A stretch of 64,000 nt of DNA from Chthoniobacterales bacterium (GTDB lineage Bacteria; Verrucomicrobiota; Verrucomicrobiia; Chthoniobacterales; UBA10450), in contig JBBQFI010000014.1 of the NCBI GenBank assembly GCA_038321775.1, positions 536-64,535 on the forward strand. Direction: 5' to 3'. Under the pieces are notes generated by a model. The model was not told the DNA's origin. It saw only the letters and a program-made list of their open reading frames with translations, and searched no databases. The position numbers and the translations under genes were made by a program. Positions 688 to 31,984 of this stretch are shown here, piece after piece. Every line of letters begins with the position of its first letter. Position 1 is the first letter of the stretch.

Positions 688-825
688 GCAAGTCTTGTGA
701 GATCGACTGAGTGCAATTTATTCCCGCAGTTCCTCGCTAGGCGGAACGCTGGTGAGCGTCCGCTCGGAAACAAAAACCCGCCAACAGGAAAATGGATGAG
801 CGCGTAACATTTCGGTCCCACTTCA

Positions 826-16560: not shown

Positions 16561-16594
16561 CAAGAAACGGTGGCTCTGTTGAAAAGCTGCCTGC

Positions 16595-16687
16595 TGTCAT
16601 GTCGAGCGAAGTCGAGACATCTCTTACTATTCATCTGCGCTTGGAACATCAACAATGAGAGATTCCTCGACTGCGCTCGGAATGACA
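16595..16687. repeat. REP/MITE-like imperfect palindromic element
   Basis: The left arm tgtcatgtcgagcgaagtcgagacatctct and right arm gagagattcctcgactgcgctcggaatgaca are about 25/30 complementary, with a spacer of about 30 nt. Arms of this type (gtcattccgagcg.agtcgagg) recur in many environmental bacterial genomes. Confidence 0.55.
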
Positions 16688-17111
16688 TAGCTTTTTAACA
16701 AAGCCAGAAACGATCAGGGTTTGTGTCCGCAAAAACCGGAAGAGATTCACACCTCTTCAGACGCCACGTGTGTCTGATCGAACCGACAATCCGTCCTTCT
16801 AAAAAAAATTCTATGCTGAAAACGCTGTTCTCGCCTAACGAATTCTGCGCAGACTTGCGCCGTAATCGTAGATCGGGGAACAGTGTTCACCGAGTCCCCT
16901 CGCCTCTTCCCTCCTACAGTCCCGAATTTTCCTCGTCCTCCTTAGCAAGGACACACCGCGAATTAAAAAAGCAGGATCGGTTCTTTTTCCCGAACCTCAA
17001 TTTGTTCTCGACCTCGCGCTTCAGAAGCGGCGACTCGAGACCTCGCAGCTCGCAAGCAGCGACATCATCGAATCGCAGCGAGGAAAAACGGCGAAGTCAT
17101 CATAATCAAAT

Positions 17112-20680: not shown

Positions 20681-20817
20681 CGTGCCGATGATTGCTCTCT
20701 TGGGATTTGAGAGATGGAGTAATGACCTGGCGTTTGAAAAGCCCGCGCTCCTTGATGGAGCAAGGTGACGAAGAATGTTGTTGCGGAGTTTGCGACGCCG
20801 CCGGACGACTTTGCTGC

Positions 20818-21837
20818 ATGACGGAGGATCTCCAATTTGATCAGCGAGCTTGCTTGATTGCGGGCCAGGCGAAATCGGGGACGACGTTACTCGTTGCATT
20901 GCTCGATAATCATCCGGAATTGCTCGTGCTTCCGGAAGAGACCGCGTACTTCCCGACTGTTCTCACAAAATACGGCCAACGGTCGCGCCGCGAACAATTC
21001 GATTACCTAACGAAAGATTCGCTTTCCAATGTCGTCTTCGGCGGTCCATGCAAATGGGGTAAACGCGATTACTCATACTTTCCGACTTCGACATTTTTAA
21101 GTTTATTCGGGGCGCGCGCATTCGATCCCGCCAACGCATCAAAAGATTTGCTGATTCTCATGCTCGAATCATACGCCGAGACGATCGGCCGCCCGCTCGA
21201 TACAATTAAGCGCTGGGTGGAAAAAACGCCCGCCAACCGCAATCATCTTCCCGCAATCTTCAATCGCTTCCCGCAGGCAAAAGTGCTTCTCACGATGCGC
21301 GATCCGCGAGCAATTTTAGCCGCACAAATCGCCTTGGAGAAAACGCGACAACTCCGGCGCTTTTCCATTTACTACTGCGTTTCGCACTGGCTAAGGGCTG
21401 CGACGTTAGCAGCCAACTCGTTGCGGGGGGAAGACGCGCGGACGTTTGTCGTGCCGTATGAAAAACTCGTGCTCGATCCCGCCCAATGTATGGAGAAAGT
21501 CTGTTCGTTCCTGCAAATTAGTTTTGACGAAGAAACGGTTTTGACGCCGACGAAAGTCGGAAAGTTCTGGCGCGGAAATTCCGCCGCCGAGACTGATTTT
21601 TCGCAGATCAGCACCGAACCTTTGACACGATGGGAAACGGAACTTTCGCGCGATGAGATCGGATGGGTGGAATGGCATTGCCGCGAACTGATGCCGATTT
21701 TTGGATACAAACCGCGGCTGGATCGGCGCGAGCTGCGCCATTTTCTTCGTCCAATTCGTTACGAAACTCCGCGCGAATATTTGAAATCGCGCCTTTATTC
21801 TTATCGCGATTCGATGCGATCGCGTCGCAGTTCATAA
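20818..21837 (+). CDS. Sulfotransferase-family protein
   Basis: PAPS-binding 5'-PSB-like loop (AGQAKSGTTLL) and a 3'-PB-like region (LLTMRDPRAILAAQ). The start is taken at the internal ATG 20818; the ORF maximum starts at 20692. Confidence 0.7.
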   Translation: MTEDLQFDQRACLIAGQAKSGTTLLVALLDNHPELLVLPEETAYFPTVLTKYGQRSRREQFDYLTKDSLSNVVFGGPCKWGKRDYSYFPTSTFLSLFGARAFDPANASKDLLILMLESYAETIGRPLDTIKRWVEKTPANRNHLPAIFNRFPQAKVLLTMRDPRAILAAQIALEKTRQLRRFSIYYCVSHWLRAATLAANSLRGEDARTFVVPYEKLVLDPAQCMEKVCSFLQISFDEETVLTPTKVGKFWRGNSAAETDFSQISTEPLTRWETELSRDEIGWVEWHCRELMPIFGYKPRLDRRELRHFLRPIRYETPREYLKSRLYSYRDSMRSRRSS

Positions 21838-21838
21838 C

Positions 21839-22654
21839 GTGTCGCCCATCCGACTCAATTTCAGCAGCCGCGCCCGCTTGTTATCCGGCGGCGATGCCAT
21901 TGTCGTTTCCATTCCGAAAAGTGGCCGCACCTGGGTACGTGCATTCCTCTGCGCCTACTACTGCAAACGCGCTGGAAAACCGTTCACACTGGAACCAGAA
22001 AAGTACGAGCTGCCGGGGATACCGCGGATCATTTATACGCACGATCTTTTCGAGCAACGCACGAAGGCCGATCTTTGGGACAAGGTGCGCGGGAAGTATC
22101 TGGTCCCGGCGAGCGAACTTCGCCGCGCCAGGATCATTCTTCTCGCGCGCGATCCGCGTGATGCTTTCGTTTCCCATTACGTGCAACTGGTGCGCCGCTC
22201 CTCCGATACGCCTAACGAGTTAAGACAAAAAAGCCTGAGCGAACTTTTGCGCGATCAGGCGTTCGGGATTGAGGCAATTGTCGAGACGATGAACCGGTGG
22301 CTGAAGGAATTCGGACGCCGTAAAAATTTCCTGCTCGTCACCTACGAAACATTGCGCGCCGAACCGGACAAGACGTTTCGCACTCTCCTGGCGGACCTCG
22401 GTGAAGTCGCGCCGGACGCGGATGCATTCGCTCATGCGCTCGCGTTTTCCGATTTCGAAAATATGAAAAAACTGGAAGCAGCCGGGGCCTTCGATTCTAA
22501 AATTTTGAAGCCGGGCGATGTGACCGATCCGGAGTCGTTTAAAGTACGACGCGGAAAAATTGGCGGGTATCGAGAATATCTTTCCGAAGAGGATCAGCGC
22601 TACGCCGCAGCTGTGCTCAAGCAACTGCATCCTCGTTTCAGCTACGCCGCGTAG
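21839..22654 (+). CDS. Sulfotransferase-domain protein
   Basis: 271 aa. IPKSGRTWVRAFL (5'-PSB) and LLARDPRDAFVSHY (3'-PB) motifs. Starts 1 nt after the previous stop. Confidence 0.75.
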   Translation: MSPIRLNFSSRARLLSGGDAIVVSIPKSGRTWVRAFLCAYYCKRAGKPFTLEPEKYELPGIPRIIYTHDLFEQRTKADLWDKVRGKYLVPASELRRARIILLARDPRDAFVSHYVQLVRRSSDTPNELRQKSLSELLRDQAFGIEAIVETMNRWLKEFGRRKNFLLVTYETLRAEPDKTFRTLLADLGEVAPDADAFAHALAFSDFENMKKLEAAGAFDSKILKPGDVTDPESFKVRRGKIGGYREYLSEEDQRYAAAVLKQLHPRFSYAA

Positions 22655-22679
22655 TCCGGAGCAACGCAAAGCGAAAAGG

Positions 22680-22752
<73 letters not shown>

Positions 22753-22865
22753 GTGATGAATCCTCGCGCGCTGTGCGCGACCGGAGCGTCACTATGCGAA
22801 ATTCCCGGCGCGGAGCAAGAATCATCGCGAAAGGAAAACTTTGTTGTTAGACTGTGTGCCGGATC

Positions 22866-25800
22866 ATGGCAACCGCCGCACAAGAATCGAAGTGGAAGCG
22901 GATTCGCATTTTCATTTCTTCGCCGAGCGACCTGACGGAAGAACGGCTCGCCGGCGAACGCGTGGTAGAAAGATTGCAGGCCGAATTTCTCGGTGCCGCT
23001 GTCCTCGAACCGATTTTGTGGGAAGACCTGCCGCTCACCGCGGAACGGGCGTTTCAGGATCAGATTCCGCTTCCGGCGGAAGTTGAAATCGTTGTCCTGA
23101 TGTTGTGGTCGCGACTCGGTTCGCGCCTGCACAGCAAATACAAAAGTGGAACAGGCGAAGCGCCCACCGGCACGCTCTTCGAATTCCGCAACGCGCTCGA
23201 AGGCCGGAAACGCACCAATCGTTTTCCCGACATCATGGTTTACCGCAAGACAGCGGAACCGCCCAAGGCAAGCATTCGCGATCCCCAGGCGCGCCGTAAG
23301 GAAGAGGACGAGTGGCGGAAGGTGGACGACTTCTTTGCTCGAACGTTCATCGATCAACGTGAAGGAGTTTTTACCGGCGCGTTTCATCAATTCACGCGCA
23401 CGATGGAATTCGAGGCGGTTTTCGAAAAACACCTGCGTAAACTTGTGCGATCGCATCTCGCTGATGCGACGCAGGAAGTGGCATCTTCACAGATTCGCTG
23501 GCCCTGGGACATCAAGCGACAAGGTTCGCCCTTCCGCGGCCTTGGTTATTTCGATTTCGAACACGCCCCGATTTTTTTCGGGCGCGCGGAAGCAGCTACC
23601 TCCGTGCGCAACGCGTTGCGCAGCCAGGCCGCAAACGGAAAAGCCTTCGTCCTGGTAACGGGCGCAAGCGGTCTCGGAAAATCATCACTCGTTAGGGCAG
23701 GAGTGGTGCCAGGCATGGTCCAGCCCGGTGTGGTGGAAGGCGTCAGTCTTTGGCGCCGCGCCGTGGTCGGACCGAAATTTGAGAGCGGCGACCTGTTTCT
23801 CGAGCTGGCGACCGGACTGTTGCGCGATGGCGCTCTGCCCGAACTTGTTTCGGCGCAACAAATCGACGCGCCAAAACTGGCCGCGCAGTTGCGCAGTTCG
23901 CCCGCCGCGGCCGTTTTTAAAATCGAAGCCGGCCTTAGCCTTGTCACGACGGAGGCGCGCGTGCGCGAAGAAGCGAAGCTGCAGGCGAAAATTACCGATC
24001 TCGAAAAATCCGGCGATCTCGCTCAAGCCGCAGAGTTGCAGGAAATGGCCGCGCACATTCTGCAACCGCAGGCGCGCCTGGTTCTCATCCTCGATCAGCT
24101 TGAGGAAATTTTTACCACCGCCGGCGTTTCGGCGGAAGAACGCGAAAAATTTATCGCTGCGATCGACGCTATGGCGCGCAGCGGTTTGGTTTCGGTGATC
24201 GCCACTTTGCGCAGCGATTTTCATGGTCGATTGAGCGAGCTGCCGCAGCTCGTCGAGCTCATGGAAGGCGCGGGCGAATATATCGTTAGGCCACCGACAC
24301 GCGAAGAGCTCGGCCAAATGATCCGATTGCCTGCGCTCGCCGCCGGCTTGCGTTTCCAGGAACGGTCCAAGAAAAACATCGGGCTCGATGAAATCCTTCG
24401 CGACGAAGCTTCCAGCAATCCACAGGCGTTACCGCTCCTCGAATTTGCCCTCGATGAAATTTATCGCCGCCGCGAACCGCAACCGGACGGGACCGCGTTA
24501 TTGACCGTTTCCGCTTATGCGAAACTGCGCACGATCCGGGGCGCCCTTGGACTTAAAGCGGAAGAAACGTTTCGCTCGTTAGGCGCGGAAGCGCAGGAGG
24601 CGTTCGGGAAAGTGATGCGCGGAATCGTGACGCTTTCGCTCGAGGAAAATTCCACCTTTACCCGGCGCTGGGCCAATTACAGTCAACTCACCGCTTCGCC
24701 CGCGGCCGCAACTTTTGTCGACGCGTTTATTAAGAATCGTCTCTTTGTGGCCGATGCGACGAAGGACGACATGCGCGGCTCGGTCAGTGTCGCGCACGAA
24801 GCGCTCTTCACGAGCTGGCCGCGTCTGCGGCGTTGGCTCCACGGCGAAAGCGATTTCCTGAAACGACGCGCGCGGCTCGCACAGGAAGTCGCGCTCTGGA
24901 ACGAGCAAAAACAGGAGGCAGCGTATTTGCTTGAAGGGCGCGCCTTGCAGGACGCGCTCGTGCTCATTGAGGATCATCGCTCTGATCTCACCGCGGAAGA
25001 AATTACTTTCATCGAGCGTTCGCGTCACGCTTTCGAACTGAAAGCGCGCCGGCGTCAGCGTGCGCTTATGACACTGGCCGCGGTTTTTCTGGCGCTGGCG
25101 ATTTTGTCCGGCGTCGGTGCGTTCTTCGGTTTTCGCGGCGAGGGACGCGCGCGGGTAGCGCAGCGCAGCGCCGAATCGGAAAAATCGGCCGCGCAAAAAA
25201 CTCTCAGCCGTTCCGATTTTTTCCAAGCCGGTCGGTTGCTCGAAAACAACGACGCGTCGCATGCGCTGGCTTATCTCGCGCGCGCTTTGCGCGTCGATCC
25301 CGCCAATCGCGCGGCGAGCGATATGATCAGCGCATTATTGCTACAACGAAACTGGCCGCTGTTGATCGGACCGAAAGTTCCTTTTGAAGCCTCCATCCTC
25401 ACCGCCAGCTTTAGTCCCGACGCGAGTAAGGCTGCGACTATTTCCTACGACAACACGGTGCGTATTTGGAACACGAAAACCGGCGGTGCGCTGACGCCGC
25501 CGCTCACGCAACAATCGCCCGCGTTCTCGGTCGTTTTCAGTCCCGACGGAAAATCGGTGCTCATCGCCTGCTATGATTACACGGCACGCATTTGGAGTGC
25601 GGAAACCGGACAGCCGATCGGCCCAGTCATGAAACACGATGGCAGTCTCGAATCGGCGGTCTTTTCTGACGACGGCAAAACAATTGTCACTACAAGCAAC
25701 GACAAAGGTTTTTTGTGGGAAAGCAAAACCGGGCTAGCGGCCCGCGAACCGATTCAAGCTGACGGCCAGGTCAATTACGCGGCGTTCAGCCCCGATGGCA

Positions 25801-27503
25801 CCCATCTCGTCATCGCGACATGGGAAGCGGTACGTGTGTGGGATGTGCAAAGCGGGAAGTCGTTAGGCACGGCGATTCCGCACGAAGGCGCGATCAAGTC
25901 GGCCGGTTTCACACCGAACGGCGCGGCTATTTTCACGGCCACTTGGGATAACGTGGTGCGGCTGTGGAATTGGCAGACAGGCGAAGCGCTCGCGGCGCCG
26001 CTGCATCATGGCGATTATGTGAACTCTGTCGTCTTCAACGCGGACGGCTCGAAAATTTTAACTGCATCCAAAGACCGCACGGCATGTTTGTGGGACGCGA
26101 AAACCGGAAGGGAAATCGCGGAGCCGATGCAGCACGACGCGGCGGTACTGGCGGCGACGTTTAGCCGCGACGGCGGAAACGTTTTCACGATTGCGGGCGA
26201 TTACGATGGGCGCGGGACGAGCGCGACGTGGGAAGTGCGCGACGGCCGCGCGCTCGTGCAAACGATGTCGCACCAGGATGGTGTCACTTCCATCGAGTTT
26301 AACGGCGACGGCAGCAAAATTCTTTCGGCGTCGAAAGACAACACCGCACGTATCTGGAACGTGCAAACTGGCCAGCCGATCACGCCGCCTCTGCCACACG
26401 ACGACGCCGTGCAATGCGCGACGTTCAGTCCTGATGGCGACAAGGTGCTTACTGGTTCCCTGGATAAAACGGCGCGCTTATGGGATGCGAAAACGGGCGC
26501 ACCGATCGGCGAGCCTTTGCGACACGACGATAGCGTGCAAGCGATCGCGTTTAGTCCCGATGGCGCGCACATCGCGACGGCTTCGAGTGATAAGACCGCG
26601 CGCATTTGGAACACGAACGCGCCGCGCGATCCGTTAATTTTGCGACATGCCGACGCAGTGACGTCGGTAAACTTCAGCCCAGATGGGCGCCGCCTTGTCA
26701 CGGCCGGCGCGGATAACACCGCGCGCGTGTGGGACGCGCAAAGCGGAAAGGAAATTCTTTCGCCATTACGTCACGACGTGGCCATGGAGGGCAGCCACGA
26801 GGCCGGTGTGGTCAGCGCAATGTTCAGTCCCGATGGAAAACTGATCGTGACTGCGAGCAAAGATAACACCGCGCGCATCTGGAATGCGCAGACCGGCGCG
26901 TCGATCGGCACGCCGATGCGGCACCACGCGTACGTTGTTTCGGCTGCGTTTAGCGCCGATAGCCGCCGGGTTCTCACCGCGGCGGGCGAATTCGGAAAGC
27001 CCGGTTCGGCACGCATTTGGGATGCGGCAAACGGACACGCCTTGATCGAACCGCTGCCGCACGATGATGGCGTGACAACGACGGCGTTCAATCGCGAAGG
27101 AACGCGTGTGATCACATCTTCGTACGACAAAACCGCGCGGCTCTGGGATCCGGAAACCGGCCGCTCCCTGAGCGATCCATTTCGTCACGAACAACTCGTG
27201 ACCTCGGCGAAATTCAGTCCAAATGGAAAACAAATCGCGACCGCCTCACTGGATGGCATGATTCGCGTCTGGGAAGTTTTTGCGGCGGACGAACAATTTC
27301 GTTCTCTCGCGGCCGATCTCGCGGAAAGCGTGGGCCGTGTGCATTTGAATGCTCTCGGAATTCCCGAACCCGCGACCGCAAAGATTCCCGAAATAAACGC
27401 CTCGCCATTTCTGCAATGGTTCCTGGCCGATCGCTCCACACGCGCGCTCGCGCCCTCTCTTGCGCAAACGGCACGCTCGTTAGGCGAACAGGTGCGAAAT
27501 TGA
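22866..27503 (+). CDS. Large STAND-type NTPase: N-terminal DUF4062-like domain, P-loop NTPase, one TM helix, about 15 C-terminal WD40 repeats
   Basis: KRIRIFISSPSDLTEER (DUF4062-like), Walker A VLVTGASGLGKSSL (DNA 23661..23684), Walker B-like LVLILDQLEE, and a hydrophobic helix LMTLAAVFLALAILSGVGAFFGF (25066..25134). These are followed by repeated SPDG...D.TARIWD units. Confidence 0.85.
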   Translation: MATAAQESKWKRIRIFISSPSDLTEERLAGERVVERLQAEFLGAAVLEPILWEDLPLTAERAFQDQIPLPAEVEIVVLMLWSRLGSRLHSKYKSGTGEAPTGTLFEFRNALEGRKRTNRFPDIMVYRKTAEPPKASIRDPQARRKEEDEWRKVDDFFARTFIDQREGVFTGAFHQFTRTMEFEAVFEKHLRKLVRSHLADATQEVASSQIRWPWDIKRQGSPFRGLGYFDFEHAPIFFGRAEAATSVRNALRSQAANGKAFVLVTGASGLGKSSLVRAGVVPGMVQPGVVEGVSLWRRAVVGPKFESGDLFLELATGLLRDGALPELVSAQQIDAPKLAAQLRSSPAAAVFKIEAGLSLVTTEARVREEAKLQAKITDLEKSGDLAQAAELQEMAAHILQPQARLVLILDQLEEIFTTAGVSAEEREKFIAAIDAMARSGLVSVIATLRSDFHGRLSELPQLVELMEGAGEYIVRPPTREELGQMIRLPALAAGLRFQERSKKNIGLDEILRDEASSNPQALPLLEFALDEIYRRREPQPDGTALLTVSAYAKLRTIRGALGLKAEETFRSLGAEAQEAFGKVMRGIVTLSLEENSTFTRRWANYSQLTASPAAATFVDAFIKNRLFVADATKDDMRGSVSVAHEALFTSWPRLRRWLHGESDFLKRRARLAQEVALWNEQKQEAAYLLEGRALQDALVLIEDHRSDLTAEEITFIERSRHAFELKARRRQRALMTLAAVFLALAILSGVGAFFGFRGEGRARVAQRSAESEKSAAQKTLSRSDFFQAGRLLENNDASHALAYLARALRVDPANRAASDMISALLLQRNWPLLIGPKVPFEASILTASFSPDASKAATISYDNTVRIWNTKTGGALTPPLTQQSPAFSVVFSPDGKSVLIACYDYTARIWSAETGQPIGPVMKHDGSLESAVFSDDGKTIVTTSNDKGFLWESKTGLAAREPIQADGQVNYAAFSPDGTHLVIATWEAVRVWDVQSGKSLGTAIPHEGAIKSAGFTPNGAAIFTATWDNVVRLWNWQTGEALAAPLHHGDYVNSVVFNADGSKILTASKDRTACLWDAKTGREIAEPMQHDAAVLAATFSRDGGNVFTIAGDYDGRGTSATWEVRDGRALVQTMSHQDGVTSIEFNGDGSKILSASKDNTARIWNVQTGQPITPPLPHDDAVQCATFSPDGDKVLTGSLDKTARLWDAKTGAPIGEPLRHDDSVQAIAFSPDGAHIATASSDKTARIWNTNAPRDPLILRHADAVTSVNFSPDGRRLVTAGADNTARVWDAQSGKEILSPLRHDVAMEGSHEAGVVSAMFSPDGKLIVTASKDNTARIWNAQTGASIGTPMRHHAYVVSAAFSADSRRVLTAAGEFGKPGSARIWDAANGHALIEPLPHDDGVTTTAFNREGTRVITSSYDKTARLWDPETGRSLSDPFRHEQLVTSAKFSPNGKQIATASLDGMIRVWEVFAADEQFRSLAADLAESVGRVHLNALGIPEPATAKIPEINASPFLQWFLADRSTRALAPSLAQTARSLGEQVRN
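25390..27277 (+). repeat. Tandem WD40-repeat coding array (about 15 units of about 126 nt)
   Basis: Recurrent ...FSPDG..(I/L).T(A/G)S.D.TARIW(D/N)..TG... at the protein level, and recurring accgcgcgcatttgg-like strings at the DNA level. Confidence 0.8.
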
Positions 27504-27540
27504 AATTGAACAAATCCCCCTAACCACCAATAATCCGCCA

Positions 27541-28038
27541 ATGAAAATACTGCGCCGCGCCTTCCTGCTCGCTTGTGGCCTAACGACTATTGCTTTGGCG
27601 CACGCCCGAGTTTTTGACGGCGAAAAACAATACGAAACACTCTTCGGTGCGGACACCAACAAGGCGATTCAGTTCACGCCACCGCACAAGCTCGCCATTT
27701 ATCGGCACAAGCGCTACGTGATCCTCGCGTTGTTCGATGGCGCAAGGAGTGAGGGCGAATTCATCATGCGCAGCAGTGGCCGCCTTTCCGAAACGGACGT
27801 GAACGGCATCCTCTCGGTCAACCAGGGCTCGTCCTCGTGGAAAAAACAGAAGATCGATACTTCGAAGGATCCGAACCTGGTGCAGGCCGGCCTTTGGATG
27901 CGCGGAGACGGAAAGCTTTTTGCACTCTCCGGCCTAACGAACGGTAACGCGTTTCTTTTGATCGGAACAAAACGCGGCGGCGAGATTTTATTTAAGGAAA
28001 AAGATAAATTGCCGGCGGCGGCCGCGGCAAAGAAGTAA
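27541..28038 (+). CDS. Hypothetical secreted protein
   Basis: 165 aa. Signal peptide MKILRRAFLLACGLTTIALAHA and no recognisable domain. Lies 37 nt downstream of, and co-oriented with, the STAND-WD40 gene. Confidence 0.5.
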   Translation: MKILRRAFLLACGLTTIALAHARVFDGEKQYETLFGADTNKAIQFTPPHKLAIYRHKRYVILALFDGARSEGEFIMRSSGRLSETDVNGILSVNQGSSSWKKQKIDTSKDPNLVQAGLWMRGDGKLFALSGLTNGNAFLLIGTKRGGEILFKEKDKLPAAAAAKK

Positions 28039-28049
28039 AAGGACGCCCC

Positions 28050-28631
28050 TTAGGTTTTTCGCACGCCGAAAGTGCGCGGCAGATTCGCGGCGCGTGAGAG
28101 CAGATGCATATATTGACTTCGCGGAATCTCGATGCCGCCAAATTGCAGCAAGTGCGGCGTGAGCCATTGTGTGTCGAGCAAGGTGAATTTTTTTGCGCGT
28201 AACCGCTCGACCAACCCACACAGCGCGATCTTCGATGCGTCCCTCACGTGATGAAACATCGACTCGCCAAAAAATGCCGCACCGGACGAAACGCCGTAAA
28301 GGCCGCCCACAAGTTTACCGTCGGCCCATGCCTCGACTGAATGTGCATGACCGAGTTCGTGCAGCCGTGTGTAACTTTCGATAATCTCGTGATTGATCCA
28401 CGTATCCGGCCGCTGCGCACAGGCCTGCATCACTTCAGCAAATCGAGTATTGATCCGGATCTCAAAAAGATTTTTGCGGAACGTTCGATCGAGGGCGTGG
28501 GGAATATGAAAATTGTGCAACGGAAGAATTCCGCGCGGTTCCGGTGAGAACCATTCGATGCGCCCATCTTCCATTGCCATGGGAAAAACGCCGAGCCGAT
28601 ATCCCTCCAATAAAAGCTCGGGTTCGATCAT
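28050..28631 (-). CDS. aat: Leucyl/phenylalanyl-tRNA--protein transferase
   Basis: 193 aa. LLEGYRLGVFPM, WFSPEPRGILP and GGLYGVSSGAAFFGESMFH motifs. Confidence 0.9.
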   Translation of the reverse strand: MIEPELLLEGYRLGVFPMAMEDGRIEWFSPEPRGILPLHNFHIPHALDRTFRKNLFEIRINTRFAEVMQACAQRPDTWINHEIIESYTRLHELGHAHSVEAWADGKLVGGLYGVSSGAAFFGESMFHHVRDASKIALCGLVERLRAKKFTLLDTQWLTPHLLQFGGIEIPRSQYMHLLSRAANLPRTFGVRKT

Positions 28632-30553: not shown

Positions 30554-30570
30554 TTCCTCGTTAGGCGCAA

Positions 30571-31434
30571 GTGATGGACGCGTCCGCGAAGGAAGGAGCG
30601 TGGCTGGAAACAGTCGATAGCGAAATCCACGAGCTCCAGGGAAGTTGTTCGCTCGGACGGGCCGACGTTAACACGATCGTGATTGATTCGCCGAAAGTAT
30701 CGCGACAACACGCCGTCATTCATTTGCAAAACATGGGCGAGTTTTGGTTGATCGATTTCGGCAGCAGCAACGGAACGTTCGTAAACAAGCGGCGCGTTCA
30801 GCAACCGGTGCGCTTGAATGACAACGATCAAATCAGCATTGGCGATCGCGTTTTTACATTCCGACAGGACGTTGCGCCGCTCGAATACAGACGAATGGCA
30901 GCGCAGCAAACAGTGCGCGAGATCGAAAATATTCCCTGCTGGTTGCTCGTCGCGGACATTCGCAATTTCACGACGTTAAGTCGCAACCTGCACAGTGAAG
31001 GTCTCGATCTTCTGATCGGAGGATGGATCGCGGCCTGCAAAGAAATTATCGAGCAGCATCACGGAACGATTAATAAATATCTCGGCGACGGTTTTCTGGC
31101 CTACTGGACGGAGAACGCGATCAGGCCTGAAGAAATGGCTGCGATTCTCTCCGCCTTCAAAGAGCTGCAGAAAAAAAATGCGCCGGAGTTTCGTGTCGTC
31201 GTGCATTTCGGACAGGTGTCGATCGGTGGTGTCGCATCGATGGGCGAAGGAAGTTTAATGGGGAAAGAAGTGAACCTGATTTTTCGCTTGGAAAAACTTG
31301 CGGGTTCGTTAGGGGAAAGCTGCGGACTGAGCGAAAAAGCGCAGGCCAAGCTTGGAGACTTGATGCCGGCACGGCGACTTGGTGACTACGAGCTAAAAGG
31401 TTTCGATGGAAAATCCGCGTTTTTTGCAGCCTGA
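30571..31434 (+). CDS. FHA-domain adenylate/guanylate cyclase
   Basis: 287 aa. N-terminal FHA (CSLGRADVNTIVIDSPKVSRQHAVI...GSSNGTFVN) and a class III cyclase core (LVADIRNFTTLS...KYLGDGFLAYW). Confidence 0.8.
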   Translation: MMDASAKEGAWLETVDSEIHELQGSCSLGRADVNTIVIDSPKVSRQHAVIHLQNMGEFWLIDFGSSNGTFVNKRRVQQPVRLNDNDQISIGDRVFTFRQDVAPLEYRRMAAQQTVREIENIPCWLLVADIRNFTTLSRNLHSEGLDLLIGGWIAACKEIIEQHHGTINKYLGDGFLAYWTENAIRPEEMAAILSAFKELQKKNAPEFRVVVHFGQVSIGGVASMGEGSLMGKEVNLIFRLEKLAGSLGESCGLSEKAQAKLGDLMPARRLGDYELKGFDGKSAFFAA

Positions 31435-31447
31435 TCGCAAACGGCGA

Positions 31448-31984
31448 TCATGGGTTTTGCAATGAACGATACATCACATAAACGTCGACGTATCCTCGCG
31501 CAGAATGATGAAAAGCGCCCGGCAACGTTCCGACGATTTTGAAACCAAGATTTCGCCAAAGGTGTAACGCCGGTTCGTTGGTCGAGACGACAAAATTGAA
31601 TTGCATCGCTTGGAAGCCGGCACGGCGCGCTTCGCTCAGGCAATGTTCAGCCATGGCGCGTCCAACGCCGAAGCCACGCGCAACCGTCGCGACCATGAAC
31701 GCAGCGTTGGCAACATGAGCGCCGGCCGCGGGTTGATTCGCCCGCAATAAGTAAGTGCCGACAACATTCTCGTCCTGTTCGGCGACGTAGGTGCGCGTGT
31801 CGGATCGAATCCAGTAGTCGAGCGCATCTTTGCGCGACATCTGGGGATCGAAGGAATAGGTGTCGCCGGCAACAACGACCGCGTGGAAAATATTCCAGAT
31901 CGCATCGCGATCTTCATTTGTCGCGGGTCGAATGTTCAGCACAGTCTTGATTAAATCCGATTCTCCGTGTCGGCAAAAATCCAA
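31448..31984 (-). CDS. GNAT-family N-acetyltransferase
   Basis: 178 aa. Acetyl-CoA binding motif A (ARGFGVGRAMAEH) and IRPATNEDRDAIWNIF at the N-terminus. Confidence 0.8.
   Translation of the reverse strand: MDFCRHGESDLIKTVLNIRPATNEDRDAIWNIFHAVVVAGDTYSFDPQMSRKDALDYWIRSDTRTYVAEQDENVVGTYLLRANQPAAGAHVANAAFMVATVARGFGVGRAMAEHCLSEARRAGFQAMQFNFVVSTNEPALHLWRNLGFKIVGTLPGAFHHSARGYVDVYVMYRSLQNP

Follow-up and report, generated by a model that had tools for sequence, protein, structure and literature searches.

A predicted membrane-spanning STAND protein with a DUF4062-related head and a secreted partner in a Chthoniobacterales genome

Can a bacterial STAND switch carry its sensor on the far side of the membrane from its NTPase? 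The question is raised by a gene in a 64,000-nt stretch of DNA from a Chthoniobacterales bacterium, whose genome comes from a sediment metagenome (assembly GCA_038321775.1, contig JBBQFI010000014.1, positions 536 to 64,535); we call this whole stretch the window, and positions given without a locus number refer to it. The gene (22866..27503, + strand) encodes, in order, a head domain, an nSTAND1 NTPase, one strongly hydrophobic helix, 15 WD40 blades and a C-terminal tail. In the parts of PMC13581612 and bioRxiv 10.64898/2026.09.04.749371 drawn on here, the characterised bacterial STAND/NLR-type immune sensors all recognise their trigger inside the cell, and a sensor beyond the membrane would mean a new compartment for bacterial innate immunity. 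On the evidence set out below, we think it fairly likely that the gene encodes a trans-envelope, NLR-like conflict sensor, a switch that may detect envelope threats rather than cytoplasmic ones.

A hydrophobic helix between the NTPase and the propellers

The earlier note on this DNA had described a single 1545-residue open reading frame (ORF) starting about 110 nt from the 5' side of a tRNA-Phe gene, with a STAND-type P-loop NTPase, about 15 WD40 repeats and, between the two, a hydrophobic helix at residues ~738..761; all of this held. Translation from the ATG at 22866 gives 1545 residues and translation from an alternative GTG at 22854 gives 1549, both ending at 27503 on the + strand and beginning 113 and 101 nt, respectively, from the 5' end of the tRNA-Phe gene. 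The NTPase is an nSTAND1 module (PF20703; residues 222-684; 23529..24917, + strand), matched by Pfam with 280.8 bits against a cut-off of 27.1 (E 3.6e-83) over profile positions 1-377 of 379. Both Walker motifs are intact: G269, G271, K272, S273 and S274 of Walker A (GASGLGKSS, residues 266-274) and D410, E413 and E414 of Walker B are invariant across 41 aligned sequences. When residues 1-830 were modelled with AlphaFold2, the fold neighbours of the model were generic AAA+ proteins, ORC/Cdc6 and CED-4, as expected of a STAND module.

The C-terminal half is an array of WD40 blades (residues 849-1475; 25410..27290, + strand) matched by Pfam WD40 and propeller families. Pfam detects 11 WD40 stretches in it, and a count of the motif gives 15 blades with a period of ~42 residues. 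The blades share 38% protein identity with one another on average, and Tandem Repeats Finder found no array at the DNA level in the WD40 region; on both grounds we set aside a recently homogenised repeat array like those of fungal HNWD genes. The protein ends in a post-propeller tail with the motif WFLADRSTR..P (residues 1476-1545 and stop codon; 27291..27503, + strand). With its head (residues 1-215), nSTAND1 module and propellers it thus has the tripartite architecture of STAND/NLR-like proteins. The full-length protein matched none of the PADLOC family models for Avs1-5 or bNACHT, its sole match in PADLOC-DB being PDC-S60. A scan for promoters and terminators gave nothing above chance, and no RNA runs were found to contain the stretch.

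The feature that sets the question is the segment ALMTLAAVFLALAILSGVGAFFGF at residues 733-756 counted from the ATG, or 737-760 from the GTG (25062..25133, + strand). Its Kyte-Doolittle value is 2.29 and it holds the only 19-residue window above 1.6 in the protein. A simple additive insertion free energy (dG), summed from scale values after Hessa 2005, comes to -1.0 kcal/mol for residues 733-751 and to +5.9 for the segment that ranks second in the protein; neither measure revealed a second hydrophobic segment anywhere in it. The helix is a trait of the family. Residues 1-830 used as the query brought up 623 relatives, of which the best 120 all carry the head. Relatives differ in their C-terminal domains (WD40, TPR, Sel1, RHS/YD, PDZ, ankyrin, kinase), and the helix is present whatever that domain is (WD40, TPR, RHS or PDZ): in 117 of 121 sequences nSTAND1 is followed by a hydrophobic run of uncharged residues, 19-28 long (mean 21.5), whose hydrophobicity is conserved and whose sequence is not. 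The family median dG is -0.51, compared with +6.05 for the best segment within residues 1-600. Lysine and arginine are more frequent in the 15 residues on its N-terminal side than in those on its C-terminal side (means 5.9 and 3.0; N exceeds C in 107 of 117). In the AlphaFold2 model of residues 1-830 (pLDDT 84.8) the segment lies in the middle of one uninterrupted 84-residue helix (residues 710-793; 24993..25244, + strand) and not in a bundle; this helix would comprise a cytoplasmic stalk, the membrane span and an outer stalk. Beyond the span, a juxtamembrane region of TPR-like helix pairs (residues 757-848; 25134..25409, + strand; modelled helices 757-793, 797-810 and 815-827) is predicted to be extracytoplasmic.

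One span of ~20 residues, a positive-inside bias and the lack of a second span fit, by prediction, a single-pass type-II protein with a signal-anchor. With a single span, no signal peptide and an NTPase that needs cytoplasmic nucleotide, the protein should have its N-terminus inside and its propellers in the periplasm; the reversed, N-out topology was discarded because a signal peptide is lacking, the NTPase depends on cytoplasmic NTP and the charge bias is N-in. Domains of the RHS, PDZ and PD40 type are mostly extracytoplasmic in bacteria, and the RHS, PDZ and PD40 tails of relatives fit the predicted C-out arrangement. An uncharged run of 21-24 residues with a dG of -1.0, conserved as hydrophobicity in 117 of 121 relatives under strong positive-inside bias and standing mid-way along a solitary helix, is hard to reconcile with a cytosolic NLR-like protein in which the segment is a peripheral tether, a buried helix or an oligomerisation helix and the WD40 array senses a cytoplasmic ligand in the manner of Apaf-1 or Avs. 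So are the RHS and PDZ tails and the conservation downstream of a partner with a signal peptide, described below. The cytosolic arrangement has precedent, in that the STAND sensors characterised in the two sources named above are all cytoplasmic and the WD40 sensors of Apaf-1-like bacterial STANDs are cytosolic. We nevertheless consider it improbable here, and the predicted single-pass, C-out topology highly likely.

A DUF4062-related head with an invariant glutamate

What would such a switch do once triggered? The head (residues 1-215; 22866..23510, + strand) had been called DUF4062-like, which stood at the level of the family but not by the protein's own Pfam score. Scanned alone, the head has DUF4062 (PF13271) as its sole Pfam match, at 16.9-17.0 bits (E 0.007) and so under the cut-off of 24.7, while 29 of 41 members of the head family match DUF4062 at E<=0.01 (best 2.3e-6) and match no other Pfam family. 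Because the match is real but weak for the protein itself and is supported by the family, 'DUF4062-like' is the right wording; because the cut-off is missed, we file the head as DUF4062-related and not as a strict Pfam member. In addition, 40 of 41 relatives match the first ~170 profile positions of the PADLOC defence candidate PDC-S60 (best E 1.9e-15). That model has 906 positions, of which 5-170 alone match, to the head; the head domain is thus common to PDC-S60 and the STAND protein is not a member of it.

Across 41 diverse heads (alignment A1), F16, S19, P20, D22, E26, R27, W52 and E53 are invariant, as are P56, W81, G85, G102, T103, E106 and P121; Glu106 (codon 23181..23183, + strand) is invariant in a second alignment (A2) as well. 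F16 is the candidate for the conserved N-terminal aromatic residue of DUF4062. The AlphaFold2 model of the head, a confident one (pLDDT 91.6), is an alpha/beta domain with a helical extension, putatively of TIR- or nucleoside 2-deoxyribosyltransferase (NDT)-like fold, in which E106 opens helix 102-117 after the third strand (75-80). Foldseek matched the model to TIR (4c6t), SPARTA TIR-APAZ (8spo, 8isy, 8qlp), DNPH1 (9ia6) and NDT (6qai) structures. These matches reached no more than E 1e-3 to 1e-2 and were interspersed with other flavodoxin-like folds; PDB sequences searched with a profile of the head gave no meaningful match. The family motif GTExE reads GTLFE here, within 'GTLFE106F'. As its first glutamate varies among relatives and the second, E106, is invariant, E106 is likely the catalytic residue, a candidate chosen from the alignments. 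Its position would match that of the catalytic glutamate of DUF4062/TIR domains (bioRxiv 10.64898/2026.09.04.749371; 10.64898/2026.06.25.731849), a likeness of position and not an alignment with E108 of PsAvs2 or E87 of Eva01.

Three preprints of 2026 show DUF4062 (NIR) to be a TIR-like NADase with a catalytic glutamate, which Avs and other systems use as their effector and which also occurs in human TEP1; every DUF4062 domain assayed so far splits NAD+ into ADP-ribose plus nicotinamide (bioRxiv 10.64898/2026.09.04.749371; 10.64898/2026.05.01.722283; 10.64898/2026.06.25.731849). By analogy, we somewhat favour an NADase as the output of this head. These uniform assays also tell against a conflict module with some other output, in which the head would act on a different nucleotide or nucleoside, as its NDT, DNPH1 and CMP-hydrolase relatives do, or would make a signalling nucleotide that activates separate membrane effectors such as patatin, SLATT or PLD proteins. 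Such a module would draw on the presence of DNPH1 and NDT beside TIR among the fold neighbours, on a patatin-SLATT-PLD gene triad that recurs beside homologues and beside a headless paralogue, and on a SLATT/DUF4231 protein encoded 3 nt downstream of one homologue (both described below). No patatin, SLATT or PLD gene lies beside the STAND gene in the window, and we hold a non-NAD+ output to be a minor prospect.

An accessory insertion, its partner gene and its surroundings

In the window, 5,316 nt (5.3 kb; 22757..28072) lie between tRNA-Phe and aat-guaA, an insertion that holds exactly the STAND gene and its partner gene. blastn and tblastn searches with the window showed that it is absent from four same-genus genomes (L027-L030). 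In these, tRNA-Phe stands directly beside aat-guaA, ~19 nt apart in the best-resolved of them (L027). The tRNA-Phe (GAA) gene (22678..22752, - strand; found with ARAGORN) forms the left border of the insertion and coincides with a break in synteny: it is the only element to the left that aligns with the four genomes, and beyond it there is no homology. Contigs from an independent metagenome (X4) retain both junctions at ~95% identity, and contigs that skip the insert exist in the source sample, probably from relatives. Five of 41 related genomes match the STAND gene, two of them strongly. The gene is therefore accessory and patchily distributed, and this patchy distribution of an nSTAND1 gene fits a conflict system. 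A search of genome contigs for related loci added a single distant relative (31%, Halioxenophilus), which has no value for context. We also considered tRNA-Phe as the integrase attachment site of the insert and rejected it: the insert is on the 5' side of the tRNA and the window holds no integrase.

The partner gene (27541..28038, + strand) begins 37 nt downstream of the STAND stop codon, with no terminator-like site found between the two. Its 165-residue product has a signal peptide ending at AHA/RVF, from which we predict that it is secreted, and no Pfam match. The pair is conserved as a pair: partner ORFs 48% and 50% identical (E 3e-56 and 3e-51) lie 52 nt downstream of STAND homologues (L014 and L018) that are only about 41-42% identical in their N-terminal region, and a copy 78% identical follows a 90% identical STAND homologue (L017). 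An exhaustive profile search of 1.84 billion representatives put the partner family at 56 clusters. All ten sampled members begin with a hydrophobic segment like a signal peptide, and most of the ten have the mature N-terminus R[VIL][FG]E..Q...YG in common. The STAND tail (WFLADR..R..P) is common to the partner-bearing P0027 clade (E 1e-9 to 1e-15) and matches others weakly. The partner is specific to a subclade, and a functional link between it and the STAND protein seems to us reasonably likely.

Three further observations concern small proteins of this kind. At L019 (8475-8975), the place of the partner is taken by a 166-residue SLATT_1/DUF4231 membrane protein, encoded 3 nt downstream of a STAND-TM-WD40 homologue (P0049). 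At a related-genome locus (L032 5548-6111; G030), a 187-residue ORF with a signal-peptide-like start follows the homologue by ~100 nt on the same strand; we asked whether it was a homologue of the partner and rejected this at an hhalign probability of 0.6%. A small exported protein downstream may be a theme that recurs without homology. Finally, among the matches to the partner profile, two large proteins, P0161 (1646 residues) and P0166 (577 residues), contain 4-6 copies of the N-terminal ~40-60 residues of the mature partner, and this recurrence as a repeat suggests that the first module of the partner is a mobile small domain.

The survey of homologue neighbourhoods proposed in the earlier note yielded defence and mobile contexts, alongside the clean empty site in the same-genus genomes. 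Neighbours of homologues are TIR_2 and TPR-S genes at L012; an integrase, patatin, SLATT, PLD and a TIR-Sel1 protein at L013/L014; PIN and Phd toxin-antitoxin pairs at L015; patatin-SLATT-PLD at L018; and a TIR/ThsB-like protein at L031. These neighbourhoods are of conflict type or mobile. The patatin-SLATT-PLD triad accompanies nSTAND1-TM-WD40 genes at three loci (L013/L014 781-4733, L018 10647-14517, L034 10710-14599), on differing sides and strands. The last of these is a second locus of the same genome, outside the window (L034 6181-14599; G000:C3:292180-300598), where a headless nSTAND1-TM(520-546)-WD40 gene of 1017 residues is part of a co-oriented run of five: a SIR2_2+TIR_2 fusion (493 residues), the nSTAND1-TM-WD40 gene, PLDc_2 (442 residues), SLATT (489 residues) and patatin (360 residues). 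The run has the look of a conflict operon with several effectors, organised around a membrane-spanning STAND protein. A headless gene beside SIR2-TIR suggests effector displacement, and the effector reading of the head gains support because a separate NADase-type gene stands at the place of the fused head.

The two halves of the protein also diverge at different rates. Measured against the closest (90%) homologue, the head is 94% identical, nSTAND1 92% and the WD40 array 77%, and values for the TM helix, juxtamembrane region, propellers and tail lie at 64-78%. Divergence of the outer half is what is expected of a fast-evolving sensor, or of weaker constraint and nothing else.

Several results weigh against an immune sensor of this design. 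The immediate neighbours of the STAND gene are housekeeping genes (aat, guaA) and sulfotransferases, and no defence island surrounds it. Neither 400 sampled genomes from the phylum nor three homologue loci of related genomes (including G024 and G030) yielded the partner, which was found in two STAND clades only. The head stays under the Pfam cut-off for DUF4062 (16.9 against 24.7 bits), has weak structural matches (E about 1e-3, TM-score 0.3-0.56) and, in the protein's own subclade, has lost the first glutamate of GTExE, and the candidate catalytic role of Glu106 comes from conservation and position alone.

The sulfotransferases bear on one alternative in particular. The two genes (20692..22654, + strand; Pfam Sulfotransfer_1/3) lie on the far side of tRNA-Phe and, as possible cargo, are of uncertain membership; they were not found within 10 kb of tRNA-Phe in the four same-genus genomes. 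Between the second gene and a sulfotransferase directly upstream of the 42%-identical STAND homologue at L018, identity is 66%, making the sulfotransferase the more conserved of the two (66% against 42%), and the sulfotransferases may be co-inherited cargo. Together with the housekeeping neighbours and a sub-threshold head that lacks the first motif glutamate, this would suit a non-immune trans-membrane receptor for envelope homeostasis or for cell-cell or surface sensing. Its NTPase would be a regulatory switch, its head would be non-catalytic or would signal rather than kill, and the sulfotransferases and the secreted partner would belong to an envelope-modification pathway. A kinase-TM-repeat receptor lies near the second locus, and PVC bacteria have many such receptors. 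Set against this receptor are the accessory nature of the module, missing from four congeners; the TIR, SLATT, patatin, PLD and toxin-antitoxin genes in which homologue neighbourhoods are rich; the PADLOC defence candidate matched by the head in 40 of 41 relatives, with Glu106 invariant; and the fast evolution of the sensor half. Weighing both, we find a non-immune receptor unlikely and predict that the module probably has a conflict or immune role.

Two other features of the window lie apart from the insertion. The same-genus genomes lack a counterpart of an FHA-domain nucleotide cyclase gene that follows guaA (30567-31443); DNA homology ends at ~30554-30566 and restarts at ~31444-31464, and from this break we take that gene to be an insertion also. 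A stretch of ~123 nt at 16572-16694 has 80% identity to a different place in a same-genus genome (L030 3948-4066), which fits a dispersed repeat.

A possible mechanism and comparison with known systems

We propose that the insertion is a two-gene accessory conflict (immune-type) module. Its first gene would encode a type-II single-pass inner-membrane protein whose DUF4062-related head and nSTAND1 NTPase, placed by sequence statistics, are cytoplasmic; residues 733-756 would cross the membrane within one long helix, and the juxtamembrane helices, the 15 WD40 blades and the tail would be periplasmic. The second gene would supply a small secreted protein to the same compartment as the propellers. 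An envelope-borne cue, for which phage, another bacterium and envelope damage are candidates, would bind or perturb the propellers either directly or by way of the partner, which would then be a co-receptor, guardee or inhibitor. Driven by the ligand, the stalk helices would cluster or rotate and so gather the cytoplasmic NTPase modules, and NTP-dependent oligomerisation would juxtapose the heads. This would turn on a Glu106-dependent glycohydrolase activity towards NAD+ (or a related nucleotide), and the infected or attacked cell would arrest or die. The scheme is drawn by analogy with characterised STAND/NLR proteins and with DUF4062/TIR NADases.

A more specific version, which we put forward tentatively and would not yet bet on, is a hybrid that combines the topology of a Toll-like receptor (TLR) with NLR machinery. 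As an innate immune receptor, it would survey the periplasm for cues derived from invaders (phage tail or ejection proteins, toxins from other bacteria, contact with epibionts), with the secreted protein as co-receptor or guarded decoy. A single helix would pass the signal on to STAND oligomerisation and NAD+ destruction, before foreign material enters the cytoplasm or independently of its entry. If true, the head-nSTAND1-TM-(WD40/TPR/RHS/PDZ) family, whose members run into the hundreds and come from several phyla, would form a class of extracytoplasmic pattern-recognition receptors, and this protein a tractable model of a single-pass helix that switches on a STAND oligomer. The conserved partner offers a direct experimental handle (binding, guard or inhibitor), and the NADase activity found for DUF4062 in 2026 gives a clear readout.

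None of the parts is new in itself, as nSTAND1 (PMC8195603), DUF4062/NIR effectors and WD40 sensors are each known already. In a literature search of incomplete coverage, neither the head-nSTAND1-TM-repeat family nor its secreted partner was described anywhere, and no experiment on a membrane-spanning STAND protein came up. Among the closest known relatives in design are Avs and other NLR-like defence proteins bearing DUF4062/NIR (PsAvs2; bioRxiv 10.64898/2026.09.04.749371), which likewise have an N-terminal DUF4062-type effector with a conserved glutamate, a central STAND NTPase and C-terminal repeats, and which are likewise accessory and found in defence-type contexts. The protein described here differs from them in that its NTPase is nSTAND1 and not of the Avs clade, with no Avs or bNACHT match in PADLOC; in the TM helix between NTPase and sensor, with a WD40 array predicted to be periplasmic; in the secreted partner downstream; and in a head under the Pfam cut-off. 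The eukaryotic proteins NWD1, NWD2 and TEP1 (DUF4062-NACHT-WD40) have the same order of DUF4062-type head, STAND NTPase and WD40 array, but their NTPase is a NACHT and they are soluble, with no membrane span, so that the relation is one of architecture only.

The nSTAND1 conflict proteins of Kaur et al. (PMC8195603) and those among targets of diversity-generating retroelements (PMC10907252) share with this protein the NTPase family (281 bits here), an effector or adaptor at the N-terminus that varies, and sensor repeats at the C-terminus. In the portions of these two papers used here, they differ in having EAD adaptors and FGE/CLec sensors and in being termed 'likely cytoplasmic', and periplasmic CLec sensors are predicted for some retroelement targets (PMC10907252). 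Comparable too are the receptor-like type-II ParA proteins described as single-TM immunity proteins (PCTM, TIR-ParA; bioRxiv 10.64898/2026.10.19.760177) and the transmembrane anti-sigma factor DdvA (PMC11506125). These also join a cytoplasmic NTPase or regulator through one TM helix to a variable extracytoplasmic sensor, and a coupling of envelope events to immunity has been proposed or shown for them. Unlike the present protein, they lack both a STAND oligomerisation module and a fused DUF4062 head, and their NTPase, where they have one, is of the SIMIBI ParA class.

If the predicted topology is right, the layout echoes that of animal Toll-like receptors, with repeats outside and a TIR-type domain inside, joined by a single span and, in our scheme, activated by ligand-induced clustering. 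The likeness is an analogy only. Toll-like receptors are type I proteins with the N-terminus out, have no NTPase and use their TIR domain as a scaffold, whereas the protein described here would be type II, with a STAND NTPase interposed between the membrane and the TIR-like head.

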